Shown here one piece after another: positions 15,050 to 19,583 of a stretch of DNA of 32,000 nt. Both the position numbers and the translations under genes were made by a program. Origin of the DNA: a bacterium (GTDB lineage Bacteria > UBP6 > JAFGXH01); contig JAMOQH010000095.1 of assembly GCA_027064085.1 (NCBI GenBank), positions 10,530 to 42,529 of the forward strand. Direction: 5' to 3'. The notes under the pieces were generated by a model. That model saw only the letters and a list, made by a program, of their open reading frames with translations. It did not search any database and was not told the origin of the DNA. Numbering within the stretch: position 1 is the first letter of the stretch; each line of letters begins with the position of its first letter.

Positions 15050-15594
15050 AAATCAGTAAAATAATACCATACGCCTGGACTAACTCTTACATTATCCTTT
15101 TCCTGTTTCTTTAAAAAATCATTAACCTCTTCTTTTTTTAATAAAAAAACTTCTATATTTTCACTGAGTTCAAGTTCCTGAATAGGATTTAAGTTTTCTT
15201 TTAGTGTTTCGTCAACCTCCATTGTTACAACCTGAAATGTTGCATCAGTCATTGCCGGATTCATGTCTAAAATAGAACTTACCTTTATTATTTTTCCCGA
15301 GGTAAATCCTGTTTCTTCCTTTAACTCCCTAATTGCATCTTTTGTCACATCAGAATCTTCAACAAGACCAGCCGGAAATCCAATTACAAAATGGCCAACA
15401 GCGGCTCTATATTCCCTTATAATGATAAATCTATTTGAGGGTACTAATTTTGCTATGATAACAACAGCATGTCTTAAATTTTTTCTTCTTACGAAATCCC
15501 AACCATAAGTTTTACCATTTTCATGCTTCCAATTTGCTTTTAAAAGTTGCAACCAGTCACTTTCATATAATAATGTTTCTGATATTTTTTTCAT
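15046..15594 (-). CDS. NUDIX hydrolase (ADP-ribose pyrophosphatase-like)
   Basis: The Nudix box GFPAGLVEDSDVTKDAIRELKEETGF fits GX5EX7REUXEEXGU. 182 aa. Confidence 0.85.
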   Translation of the reverse strand: MKKISETLLYESDWLQLLKANWKHENGKTYGWDFVRRKNLRHAVVIIAKLVPSNRFIIIREYRAAVGHFVIGFPAGLVEDSDVTKDAIRELKEETGFTSGKIIKVSSILDMNPAMTDATFQVVTMEVDETLKENLNPIQELELSENIEVFLLKKEEVNDFLKKQEKDNVRVSPGVWYYFTDF

Positions 15595-15855
15595 AAATAA
15601 TTCCTAATAAATCATACTAATAGATACAAGTATATAACTTTAGAACATAAAATTCCATTTTTAAATTATAAGTTGAAAAGATTAAAAGCTAATTCTTGCT
15701 AATTTTTTCATTTTTTTATATTTCCTACAGAGTATTCCTAGTAACTTCATGTTCTGACTTATCTTCTATTATTTCAACAGCAGGAGAAGGTGTTGTTGGA
15801 GAAGGTGAAATTACACTCTTTATCAAGTGTGAGTAACAACAGGATAAAATAATTA

Positions 15856-16017
15856 CTAAATAGCCCCTGCAATAGTTGGGCAACTATGCCCGGATGCTTT
15901 AACAATATCTAAATAACTAAACTCAATTAAACCATTCTCAAAAGTTCCTAATAAATCTGAAAGACCATCTTGGAGCTTGATTGTTTCTATTTTTCTAAAA
16001 AATTCTGGATATATCAT
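15856..16017 (-). CDS. Short ORF (53 aa from the SD-preceded ATG), probably a truncated remnant of a GHxCP (FmdE-like) protein
   Basis: MIYPEFFRKIETIKLQDGL...ASGHSCPTIAGAI is followed by a double stop (TAG TAA). An AGGAGAGG SD precedes ATG 16017. The other two frames stay open downstream (15725-15855). Confidence 0.35.
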   Translation of the reverse strand: MIYPEFFRKIETIKLQDGLSDLLGTFENGLIEFSYLDIVKASGHSCPTIAGAI

Positions 16018-16068
16018 ATAAATACCTCTCCTAATGATAACCATGTGAAAAAGTATCACCATAAAGTA

Positions 16069-16097
16069 AACATAACCTTATTAATTAAATTTCGCAA
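16069..16097 (-). promoter_or_regulatory. Candidate promoter (TTGCGA-17-TATGTT) of the short ORF
   Basis: On the minus strand, TTGCGA (16097-16092), a 17-nt spacer, then TATGTT (16074-16069). It uses the same -35 hexamer as the giant-gene candidate. Confidence 0.3.
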
Positions 16098-16142
16098 GAA
16101 AATAATAAGTTAAGAGTTTTCCTGTCCCAAAAATTGAGCGAC

Positions 16143-16167
16143 AATTTTGAGATTTTAGCTCAAAATT
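16143..16167 (-). repeat. Conserved-loop intergenic hairpin, copy 4 (AATTTTGAG|CTAAAAT|CTCAAAATT on the minus strand)
   Basis: Perfect 9-bp arms around the invariant 7-nt loop. One arm can alternatively pair with AAAATTG at 16130-16136. Confidence 0.6.
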
Positions 16168-16239
16168 CAATAAAAAATAAATTTTACTATCATAAAATTA
16201 TATTTTTAATTTTTATTTATACTTCTAAGTAAATATTAT

Positions 16240-16269
16240 TTGACAATTTCCCTTGAAAAGTCTTAAAAT
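16240..16269 (+). promoter_or_regulatory. Candidate sigma70 promoter of parA (TTGACA-18-TAAAAT)
   Basis: Perfect -35 TTGACA at 16240-16245 and TAAAAT at 16264-16269, about 30 nt upstream of ATG 16298. Confidence 0.45.
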
Positions 16270-16297
16270 ATGTCTTGAAATATTTTTTGGAGAAAAG

Positions 16298-17080
16298 ATG
16301 ACCAAAGTAATATCTATCGCAAATCAAAAGGGTGGAGTTGGTAAAACGATAACAGCTATTAATTTATCAAGTTTTTTAACAATATTGAATAAAAAAGTTC
16401 TTTTAATTGATATGGACCCTCAAGGCCATAGTGGAATTGGACTTGGAATTGACATTGAAGACGAAGATTATTCAACAACTTACGACTTATTAATAAATAA
16501 AGATAAAACCCTAGATGATTGTGTTACAGAAATTGATATTAAAGATAAAACTTTGGATTTAGTCATTTCCAATGTGGAATTAAGCTATGCAGAAAGGGAG
16601 TTAGAAAAACTATATCGTTCTCCAATACAAATATTAAAGAAAAAGTTAAAACCTGTAGTTAAATCAAAAGTATATGACTATATAATTATAGATTGTCCTC
16701 CATCATTAGGTAATTTAGCAATTAATGCATTTTTATCATCAGACACAATTATTGTCCCTGTTGCAACATCATTTTTTTCATTGCATGGAGTAGAAAAAAT
16801 TGCAGGTACGCTAAACGAAATTATGGATGAATTAGAAATTGAATTTAATATATTTGGCTTGTTAACTAGGTATAGAAGAAACCAAAATGTTTCTCATGAA
16901 GTCCATCAAACAATGAAAGAATACTTTAATAATAATATGTTTAAAACAGTTATAAGAGAAAATATTGATTTGGAAAAGGCTATTGGTGAAGGTTTGCCAA
17001 TTTGTGAATACAAAAAATCATCAAACGGTTATTTAGATTATAAACGACTAGCTATGGAGATAATGAGTTATGGCAACTAA
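16298..17080 (+). CDS. parA: ParA/Soj-family partition ATPase
   Basis: The deviant Walker A is IANQKGGVGKTIT, followed by LLIDMDPQG and IIIDCPPSLG. I prefer ATG 16298 (GGAG about 7 nt upstream) over TTG 16253. Confidence 0.9.
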   Translation: MTKVISIANQKGGVGKTITAINLSSFLTILNKKVLLIDMDPQGHSGIGLGIDIEDEDYSTTYDLLINKDKTLDDCVTEIDIKDKTLDLVISNVELSYAERELEKLYRSPIQILKKKLKPVVKSKVYDYIIIDCPPSLGNLAINAFLSSDTIIVPVATSFFSLHGVEKIAGTLNEIMDELEIEFNIFGLLTRYRRNQNVSHEVHQTMKEYFNNNMFKTVIRENIDLEKAIGEGLPICEYKKSSNGYLDYKRLAMEIMSYGN

Positions 17081-18284
17081 GAAAAAGAAAGCTAAAAGAG
17101 GTAATAAGGTAAAAAAAGGTGGATTTTTTAAAGAAAAAGGGGGCTTATTTAATCAAACTACAGATGAAACAGTTAATCCTACTAAAAAATTTATCAAAAA
17201 TGTCTCTGATGATGAAAATATCGAATTAACAGAAAGTGGAAAATCTCATTTCGAAACGGTAAAAAAACAAAAATTTATAGAATCAATGGAACCTGCAATA
17301 TTATTAGATAATTTATTTAATGAATTTGAATTGATAAAAATAAATAACTCTTTATTTCTTGAACTAGAAAATAATGAACAAATTTATGAAGGTGTAAAGT
17401 ATTACCTAAAAGAAAAAGAAAATATTTGGCTATTTTTTGAAGATAAAGCAATTATGCTTGATTATGCTCTTATGGAGGAGTTAAGTTTTAATTATGAATC
17501 AGAAAATATTCTAAAATACTCTCCAACGATAGTAAATAATAAAATATTTTTTATTGCAAATAAAGAAATACACATCTATAACTTAACAGAAGAAACATGG
17601 ATGCACTACTCTATTTCAGGAGAAACAACATCTTCTGCGATAGTAAATGACGAAAAGATTTTTTTGGTAATTGATTTTACTAAACTCGTTTGTTTAAATG
17701 AAAACTTTAAGGAAGAGTGGTCTTTTATTACTGAGGGATATTTATTAAACACTCCAACTATAGACGATTTTTTATACATCACATCTAGTGATGGAATGTT
17801 ATACAAACTTGATAAAGAAGGTGATATAATTTGGTCTTTTAATTCTAAAAGCTCTCTAGAAACACCTCCAATCTTATTTAAAGATATAGTTGTAATTAAT
17901 TCAATGGCAGGTAAGTTATTTTTCATATCAAAAGAAGATAAAAGAGAGCTAGCTATTATTGATTTAGGTTTTCACTTACTAAATAAACCAGCAATCAAAA
18001 ATAATGTTCTTTATGCATTTAACAGAAGATTCATTTATAAAGTGGATTTGGTGAATTATAAAATTCTTGACATACTTATGCTTGAAGAACCTATAGAATC
18101 AATTTCTAGCCTAGACGATTATTTGCATATAAAAACTAAAAATTCAAAAAGTCTCATCCTAGATGAAACATTTACAAATATAAATATAACAAATTTTAAA
18201 TCAAGTAAGTCTCCAATTCAACATGTTAACTTTTTATTATCTATTGATGAAAATTATAGTTTATTAAAAACTGAAATAGTTTAA
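17070..18284 (+). CDS. Beta-propeller (PQQ/BamB-like repeat) protein with a Lys-rich N-terminal tail
   Basis: The ATG overlaps the parA 3' end by 11 nt. The N-terminus is MATKKKKAKRGNKVKKGG. Repeated blades include SDGMLYKLDKEGDIIWSF and NNVLYAFNRRFIYKVDL. Confidence 0.7.
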   Translation: MATKKKKAKRGNKVKKGGFFKEKGGLFNQTTDETVNPTKKFIKNVSDDENIELTESGKSHFETVKKQKFIESMEPAILLDNLFNEFELIKINNSLFLELENNEQIYEGVKYYLKEKENIWLFFEDKAIMLDYALMEELSFNYESENILKYSPTIVNNKIFFIANKEIHIYNLTEETWMHYSISGETTSSAIVNDEKIFLVIDFTKLVCLNENFKEEWSFITEGYLLNTPTIDDFLYITSSDGMLYKLDKEGDIIWSFNSKSSLETPPILFKDIVVINSMAGKLFFISKEDKRELAIIDLGFHLLNKPAIKNNVLYAFNRRFIYKVDLVNYKILDILMLEEPIESISSLDDYLHIKTKNSKSLILDETFTNINITNFKSSKSPIQHVNFLLSIDENYSLLKTEIV

Positions 18285-18287
18285 ACA

Positions 18288-18755
18288 CTATAAATTATCT
18301 TCTAGAAAACTTAATATTAAGTCATCTAGATTATCTTCACTAGCTTTTTTATTTTTATCAAGAATTGATTTTTGTTTATCTTCTATAAGGTGGGCAGTAT
18401 GCTTTTTTTTATCTTGTTCAATAATATTTAAATCATCTTTTGAAGAAAGATTCTCTATTTTTTTTATTTTAGATGATTTCATATGCTCAAGCATTTTATC
18501 AATTTCTTTATCATACTTAGAGCTCAAAAGACCTTTTAAAACGGATTTATGTTGCTGTTCCATCATGGATTTTACAACATTTCTAAGTTGGGGAGCATTT
18601 ACAACATTTTTATAAGAATTCTTTACAGAAATAATAATATTACCACCAATAAAAAGATGTGTAATAATATGTGCTATCTCTTCTCCACTATCCTCAGTTT
18701 GGACATGGAATACAATATCTTTATATTTTATATTGTGATTAAAACCTGTAATCAT
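18288..18755 (-). CDS. Hypothetical protein with an N-terminal FHVQTEDSG motif
   Basis: 155-aa ORF. The compact N-terminal domain (IVFHVQTEDSGEEIAHIITHLFIGGNII) is followed by a charged tail. I cannot name the family. Confidence 0.6.
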   Translation of the reverse strand: MITGFNHNIKYKDIVFHVQTEDSGEEIAHIITHLFIGGNIIISVKNSYKNVVNAPQLRNVVKSMMEQQHKSVLKGLLSSKYDKEIDKMLEHMKSSKIKKIENLSSKDDLNIIEQDKKKHTAHLIEDKQKSILDKNKKASEDNLDDLILSFLEDNL

Positions 18756-18809
18756 TAAATACCCCTAATACTTTTATACTATCAAAAAAGATATATGATA
18801 TCAAGTTAT

Positions 18810-19583
18810 TTAAAAATTAATTATATTTTTTATTTCTTTAATAAAAGTGGAGTTATTTAATAAAATGTCAATACCCGTGTAATCACTTGTTGAGTCTATC
18901 ATTGTTTTTAGATTATCATAATTGTAAATGTATAGTTGTTCATTTAAATCTTTAAAGTCTTTTTTAGAATATAAAAACAAGTATTTAGAATTATCACAAT
19001 ATTTATTAAATTCATCTACTGACATTTCATCTGAAAACATCTTAGGTGAAATCATTATAAAAGAGCTATTTACTTGACAATAATTAACTGATGAATACAA
19101 AGAAATATTCGCACCCAAACCGTCACCAATGAAAACAATATTTTTAAATTTACTTTCATTACTATTTTGGGCAAAATTTACAATCAACTTTAAATCATCT
19201 TTCATTTTAGCAATTGTTGAATAACTAGATGCTTGACTTTTACCAAATCCTCTTAAATCATAGGAAACTATATTATAATTTAGTTCAAGAAAGATATCCA
19301 TTAAGATATCCCATTCTTCTAAACTACTATCTTCTTTATGAGATAAAACAATAAGTCCTTCATTATTTTTTTTATGGTATAAACGATAGTAAAGATTACT
19401 ATTATCATTTGTATTTATATATCCCTCTTGAAAGCTATAATCGTTACTTAAACTTAAGGGGTCTACATCATCTTCATTATTATAAGAAGATGTATCATTA
19501 TAGAGCTCATTATTTATTTCATTACCACTTTGTGAGCAAGAGATAAGCAACATACTTATTATCAAAAAAATCATTATCTTCAT
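18810..19583 (-). CDS. Lipoprotein with an alpha/beta-hydrolase fold that lacks the catalytic Ser and His
   Basis: Signal plus lipobox MKIMIFLIISMLLISC. DLRGFGKS matches the hydrolase scaffold. The nucleophile elbow reads GDGLG instead of GxSxG. There is no His in the C-terminal ~170 aa. Confidence 0.7.
   Translation of the reverse strand: MKIMIFLIISMLLISCSQSGNEINNELYNDTSSYNNEDDVDPLSLSNDYSFQEGYINTNDNSNLYYRLYHKKNNEGLIVLSHKEDSSLEEWDILMDIFLELNYNIVSYDLRGFGKSQASSYSTIAKMKDDLKLIVNFAQNSNESKFKNIVFIGDGLGANISLYSSVNYCQVNSSFIMISPKMFSDEMSVDEFNKYCDNSKYLFLYSKKDFKDLNEQLYIYNYDNLKTMIDSTSDYTGIDILLNNSTFIKEIKNIINF

Follow-up and report, generated by a model that had tools for sequence, protein, structure and literature searches.

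ParA/MinD ATPases are a general device by which bacteria position large structures. In the described systems, the partner protein addresses the ATPase with an N-terminus that is disordered and carries positive charge, while the remainder of the partner binds the cargo (10.1101/2022.06.09.495121); the N-terminal peptide of PomX (PMC13170346) and the motif of ParB, with its pattern L-G-R/K-G-L-x-x-L-I (PMC12462528), are two such ATPase-addressing examples. Here we analyze a parA-like gene and the gene directly downstream of it in a stretch of 32,000 nucleotides (nt) from a bacterium of the GTDB lineage UBP6; JAFGXH01 (assembly GCA_027064085.1, contig JAMOQH010000095.1, positions 10,530 to 42,529 of the forward strand). 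The whole stretch, which is called the window below, is very AT-rich in its base composition. The downstream gene encodes a predicted beta-propeller on a basic and flexible arm, and it is on balance probable that the two genes make up a ParA/MinD-type positioning module with a new type of partner. This reading is preferred because the pair shows every design feature of such modules that can be recognized in sequence, namely a partner encoded adjacent to the ATPase and carrying a conserved, disordered and positively charged N-terminal peptide, and because the partner pocket of the ATPase is rewired.

Regarding the closest described systems, chromosomal ParABS (Soj/Spo0J; MxParA-ParB of Myxococcus xanthus, PDB 8RAY, PMC12462528; HpSoj, 6IUB, PMC6393308) resembles the pair in the ATPase's deviant Walker A motif, in the adjacent downstream partner and in the charged, disordered N-terminus of that partner. 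Unlike in ParABS, the partner here has neither a ParB/Srx nor a helix-turn-helix domain, and no parS-like site with two or fewer mismatches occurs in the window. With the PomXYZ system of M. xanthus (PMC13170346) one connection lies in the host, which shows myxobacteria-type features in the form of a RomY-like neighbour of the pair and a bactofilin gene after its parAB; however, PomX is built as a coiled coil, PomY takes part as a further activator and PomZ acts on the nucleoid. McdAB, ParC/ParP, PpfA/TlpT, MinDE and FlhG (10.1101/2022.06.09.495121) also combine an ATPase with an adjacent partner whose charged N-terminus is for the ATPase and whose rest is for the cargo. The partners in these systems are built on coiled coils or intrinsically disordered regions, CheW-like, receptor or MinE folds and are encoded beside the cargo genes, whereas here a propeller takes the place of the partner and the pair is not accompanied by cargo genes.

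A two-gene unit and its conservation

The parA-like open reading frame (ORF) extends on the forward strand from an ATG at 16298 to a TAA at 17078-17080 and encodes 260 amino acids (aa); its orthologues share the start at MTKVISIANQKGGVGKT. The partner ORF, which lies on the same strand and is shifted to the +1 frame with respect to parA, extends from an ATG at 17070 to 18284 and encodes 404 aa, and the two ORFs overlap by 11 nt (17070-17080). A Shine-Dalgarno-like GGAG (16289-16292, forward strand) lies 5 nt before the first ATG, and another GGAG (17056-17059, forward strand), within the 3' end of parA and 10 nt before the ATG of the partner, is a possible signal of coupling. As to transcription, a sigma-70-like promoter TTGACA-18-TAAAAT (16240-16269, forward strand, 11/12 positions), located some 29 nt upstream of where the parA-like ORF starts, is the top-scoring site in 15550-18850, being a match to the consensus and not a proof of function, and the same scan found no promoter-like site above background ahead of the partner gene. 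Since the only strong promoter-like site stands before parA, the two genes are probably co-transcribed, and the scan is consistent with a single predicted transcript. The region upstream of parA (15595-16297) is an AT-rich gap of about 700 base pairs without a convincing gene, and its sole ORF (15856-16062, reverse strand, 68 aa) has no Pfam match.

The first-pass annotation of this DNA had described an ATPase with an intact deviant Walker A motif followed, in an overlap of 11 nt, by a 404-aa ORF which is not parB, with no parS-like palindrome in sight, and all of these points are borne out. The translational coupling that it put forward is supported at the window locus by the overlap and the GGAG, but it is not universal: overlaps of 7, 8, 11 or 14 nt are found among the relatives, and one relative has a gap instead.

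The pair is well conserved within its narrow range, which is the outcome of a test that the same annotation had proposed. All three species genomes of the class-level clade (3/3) carry both genes side by side, and neither gene turned up without the other in the genomes searched. In every readable locus (the window, L002, L003, L050, L052, L053, L055, L056, L062 and L063) the ParA gene lies directly upstream of the partner gene, while the genes on either side of the pair change between loci. Two of the related records are metagenome-assembled genomes, one from a sulfidic cave, the other from Zodletone spring. Elsewhere in the phylum, genomes have a ParA that is only about 40% identical, and in the relatives checked this ParA was the canonical one. 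In a large protein collection the partner family amounted to nine clusters in a first search and four in a second branch; a search for related loci with alignment A1 in genome contigs gave none, and one with alignment A3 in metagenome contigs gave one short contig. The family looks like one confined to a single small uncultured bacterial lineage.

Two alternative accounts bear directly on this pattern. The first is that the genes are merely co-expressed neighbours without direct physical or regulatory interaction, with which the lack of a shared cargo context and the absence of the overlap in L062 would agree. We consider it very unlikely, since order and adjacency are kept in all loci, even between subfamilies whose partners are only about 30% identical, with flanks that are all different, and since neither gene is found alone. 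The second takes the pair for a conflict or defence module built on ParA, with the propeller as the sensor. Combinations of ParA domains with sensor domains of the repeat type, among them propellers inside STAND modules, are indeed described in the survey 10.64898/2026.10.19.760177. However, no effector domain is present in the pair, and PADLOC gave one marginal match for the ParA (E ~1e-3), none for the partner and nothing significant. Moreover, the pair is single-copy and core in all clade genomes, stands in housekeeping surroundings and has a ParA conserved at 69-95%, unlike patchy and fast-evolving defence genes, all of which makes the defence account scarcely probable at all.

An orphan ATPase with altered ParB and DNA surfaces

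The parA-like protein matches the Pfam families AAA_31 (2e-50) and CbiA (8e-20) and stays below every NCBIfam equivalog cut-off. Its deviant Walker A motif, KGGVGKT at aa 11-17, agrees with the signature xKGGxxK[ST], the Walker A' Asp40 and the Walker B motif are intact, and K11, K16 and D40 are invariant in this protein, its orthologues and 103 generic Soj-type hits. Soj/ParA proteins are its closest solved structures (E 5e-43 to 5e-34). Judged from these motifs, it is predicted to be a catalytically intact and dimerization-competent Soj-like protein. The chain stops after the last core helix (...LAMEIMSYGN), with no C-terminal amphipathic membrane-targeting helix of the MinD/FlhG type.

We call this ATPase an orphan because the canonical parAB of the host lies on another contig and a Pfam scan found no ParB domain in the gene downstream of the orphan parA. 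The host assembly has ParB_N at two places only, one on contig C139 and one on C115. The first-pass annotation had recommended a search for a separate canonical locus, and contig C139 holds one, with parA and parB followed by a bactofilin gene (L016:207-2271, reverse strand, G000; the bactofilin-like protein has 131 aa). The N-terminus of the C139 ParB is MAKNRKKLGRGISKLM, the usual ParA-binding motif, and the whole assembly has only one near-consensus parS. The canonical ParA, to which the orphan is 41% identical, carries at its end a basic tail, GGKRGKK, and the position equivalent to HpSoj K230, usually a DNA-binding Arg, is Val in it. On contig C115 (L020, G000) a plasmid-type parA-parB adjoins a gene for a replicative helicase of the DnaB-like type and a replication-protein-like ORF, and the contig could represent a plasmid or else an element that has integrated. 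Further ParA/MinD types of the host are an FlhG-like ATPase next to fliA, an eps-type ATPase and a ParA with a zinc-ribbon-like N-terminal region (G000 contig C40, L017:1459-2658, reverse strand), in which about 130 aa are rich in CxxC pairs.

The orphan is a paralogue of the chromosomal ParA, separate from it and slowly evolving. Its orthologues are 69-95% identical, with a sharp fall to 46% or less in the next-best matches, and 11 orphan ParAs form one clade with support 0.999 and a long stem in a quick tree with midpoint root. Nearest to this clade in the tree are the uncharacterized sister ParAs P0022, P0028 and P0029, which are likewise ParB-less and overlap the next gene; unlike the orphans, to which they are only 41-45% identical, they have other downstream partners and no propeller. 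P0022 (L059:3501-4780), the closest ParA outside the clade, overlaps by 4 nt the 171-aa P0280, a partner in the style of McdB or PomX that starts with a hydrophobic/basic peptide, continues with a very lysine-rich spacer and has a coiled coil at its C-terminus. P0028 and P0029 (L060:3501-4340, L064:5001-5840), ParA-like proteins of 279 aa from the group that is sister to the orphan ParA, are encoded in type II secretion operons between the gspD secretin gene and gspE (MshEN plus T2SSE ATPase), which they overlap by 8 nt. Another group of ParAs, about 42-46% identical to the query and 335-383 aa long (P0031, P0051, P0054, P0073, P0075 and P0098), has CBM48/AMPK1_CBM domains of the glycogen-binding type, and these proteins could be ParA fused to a module that binds carbohydrate granules.

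Two functional surfaces of ParA are known at the level of residues. Mutagenesis has probed the hydrophobic pocket that receives ParB in M. xanthus ParA (PMC12462528), and the DNA-binding patch of HpSoj was defined as K199, K227, K230 and K247, the quadruple E mutant of which has no measurable DNA binding (PMC6393308). We transferred these published residues by HMMER alignment to solved ParAs and tabulated them in the 11 orphans and the 103 generic Soj-type hits. In the pocket, MxParA L150, L155 and L192 correspond to L137, I142 and L179 of the orphan, while V116, L152 and L187 correspond to R100, N139 and E174; unlike in ParABS, three of the six positions are therefore polar or charged. These three positions are hydrophobic in 95-97 of the 103 generic hits, whereas each of the 11 orphans has R, N and E/D there.

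The DNA-binding patch has changed as well. HpSoj K227, K230 and K247, whose positions hold R/K in 103, 99 and 87 of the 103 generic hits, correspond to E221, D224 and S241 in every orphan, so that the basic residues of the Soj patch (HpSoj K227/K230/K247; BsSoj R189 equivalent) are replaced. The fourth residue, K199, corresponds to H200, at a position which is not conserved (R/K in 2/103 generic hits, mostly N). Near these positions the orphans have R191, R193, R194, R220, K227, K239 and K240, and these neighbouring Arg/Lys residues might rebuild a DNA-binding surface. Because the best-conserved DNA-binding basic positions are replaced throughout the orphans, a nucleoid bound in the canonical way is probably not the working surface of this ParA. 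The suggestion of the first-pass annotation that the partner may link a cargo to the nucleoid is thus doubtful and is the weakest part of that proposal.

Further along the same line, one may think of a "charge-swapped", nucleoid-independent ParA, in which the acidic or polar DNA face and pocket (E221, D224, E174, N139) would let the polycationic arm of the partner replace DNA as co-activator, and the pair would place an envelope machine bound to the propeller off the chromosome. We regard it as quite unlikely. The machine might then be a type IV pilus or a secretin complex, since pilMNOPQ follow directly downstream of the pair in L055 and sister ParAs are encoded within operons for type II secretion. 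As the cargo, pilus or secretion machinery of this kind was not adopted, the support from one of about ten contexts of the pair plus the context of the sister clade being too weak.

A propeller on a basic arm and its possible role

In Pfam and NCBIfam, all PQQ/BamB matches of the partner are sub-threshold, and its N-terminal 87 aa have no Pfam match. We built an AlphaFold2 model of it from a family alignment of 10 sequences (predicted template modelling score 0.74). In this model aa 1-75 (17070-17294) are disordered, with a predicted local distance difference test value (pLDDT) below 50, and two short helices stand at aa 55-69 and 77-85; aa 88-404 (17331-18281) form a confident all-beta domain with a pLDDT of about 90, whose 33 strands agree with about eight blades of four strands each. 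The top Foldseek matches of this domain are BamB structures (E ~1e-16, template modelling score 0.6-0.7). The first 30 residues contain 11 K/R and 1 D/E, with an isoelectric point of 10.9, whereas the propeller domain is acidic with an isoelectric point of 4.7. Both the propeller fold and the basic tail, which the first-pass annotation had read from the sequence, are in this way corroborated. The first 85 residues hold no hydrophobic segment, no signal peptide and no lipobox, and the only Cys of the protein is at position 208. With such an N-terminus, and with a basic arm set against an acidic propeller, the partner is predicted to be cytoplasmic, with its propeller carried by a flexible and basic arm. 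A match of 41% identity between partner aa 28-80 and a 176-aa frame in G032 was set aside as a chance resemblance to an unrelated protein.

As BamB is an eight-bladed PQQ-type propeller like the model, and weak matches to TIGR03300 and PQQ_2 accompany the structural ones, one may ask whether the propeller is an exported BamB-like envelope protein, unrelated to the cytoplasmic ATPase. To this account we give almost no credence. Besides the lack of a lipoprotein signal, TIGR03300 scores 32 bits where the cut-off is 285, the protein begins with a conserved arm that is polybasic and disordered, and the genomic partner is a different one; the identity of the protein as BamB was rejected on the first two grounds.

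What is conserved in the partner is first of all the tip of its arm. Between subfamilies, in which the ATPase is 69-75% identical and the partner 28-36%, partner aa 1-12 are still 50-67% identical. This lysine-rich tip (17070-17105), with the invariant pattern M-A/V-T-KKK-x-KR, is 50-83% identical family-wide, and the first 30 aa contain 7-13 K/R. Invariant residues of the partner are M1, K5, K7, K9 and R10 and, further on, K39-K40-F41-I42, which belong to a second motif, KKF[IV], at aa 39-42 (17184-17195). Short conserved motifs in a disordered arm are the pattern that one expects of docking peptides.

A docking peptide for what is the question on which the strongest competing account turns. 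According to it the two proteins cooperate, but the polybasic tip anchors the propeller to DNA or acidic phospholipids, and the ParA contacts KKF[IV], the helix at aa 55-69 or the propeller itself. The 11 K/R among 30 residues without the hydrophobic pattern of the ParB type, and the second invariant motif within the arm, would suit this account. In addition, with the conserved DNA-binding basic residues lost from the orphan ParA, another part would have to supply the binding to a surface. On the other side, the activating residues lie at the extreme N-terminus of the partner in all characterized systems (PMC13170346; 10.1101/2022.06.09.495121), and the tip is short in the more distant members, where 7 K/R make a weak stand-alone anchor for DNA or lipid. 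We hold the anchoring account to be unlikely.

For the positioning module that we prefer, the mechanism would be as follows. The arm of the partner would contact the ATP-bound ParA dimer and trigger ATP hydrolysis, as the peptides of ParB, PomX, McdB and MinE do, and the propeller would be a platform that binds a cargo or forms part of one. As the partner pocket, hydrophobic in other ParAs, is polar or charged here, cross-reaction of the orphan ParA with the ParB of the same cell is not expected. In the literature searched, no propeller-based ParA partner was found, and together with the conservation of the tip in a disordered arm this favours the idea of the first-pass annotation that the propeller is a new kind of ParA partner, though not the nucleoid link that came with it.

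Several observations weigh against a positioning module. The tip does not show the pattern of the ParB motif and might just as well attach to DNA or to acidic lipids, and KKF[IV] may be as good a candidate for the ParA contact as the tip is. Across the loci examined, the pair has no cargo gene that accompanies it throughout, and in L062 the two genes are separated by a 47-nt gap instead of overlapping. The partner family comprises four representatives at 50% clustering, and since it is so tiny, the conservation rests on related genomes. Finally, the host's canonical ParA has Ser at the position of L152, so single pocket positions are not to be over-read; nevertheless, as far as the alignments tell, the joint shift of three positions, invariant in the clade, remains clear.

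Neighbouring genes and meaning of the pair

Directly beyond the partner gene, the window encodes on the reverse strand (18288-18755) a 155-aa protein that matches the RomY N-terminal domain model with 108 bits against a cut-off of 50. This RomY-like gene is convergent with the partner gene and lies 3 nt past the partner stop in the window, and in the close relative L050 a putative RomY-like gene of the same size lies likewise. A gene of 153 aa stands at the corresponding position in L052, while the more distant family members have none. The RomY-like gene points to a polarity module of the MglA/MglB type in the lineage. It was dropped as a part of the system under study, as it is not adjacent to the pair in L002, L053, L055 and L062. 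In L052, a PilZ gene and a gene for an FHA/sigma-54 activator stand ahead of the pair, which is a weak hint at the cargo.

Each new type of partner of ParA/MinD ATPases reveals a new cargo or a new mode of coupling. What is new in this case, as judged against the literature searched, is a folded beta-propeller as the putative cargo-side domain, combined with altered surfaces of the ATPase. The host is uncultured and the family very small, which sets limits to its study. The orphan ATPase departs from Soj exactly at residues which were shown by experiment to bind ParB and DNA, and for this reason the pair is a natural test case of the way in which duplication leads to a rewired partner specificity, and of whether a Soj-type ATPase can function without the nucleoid.

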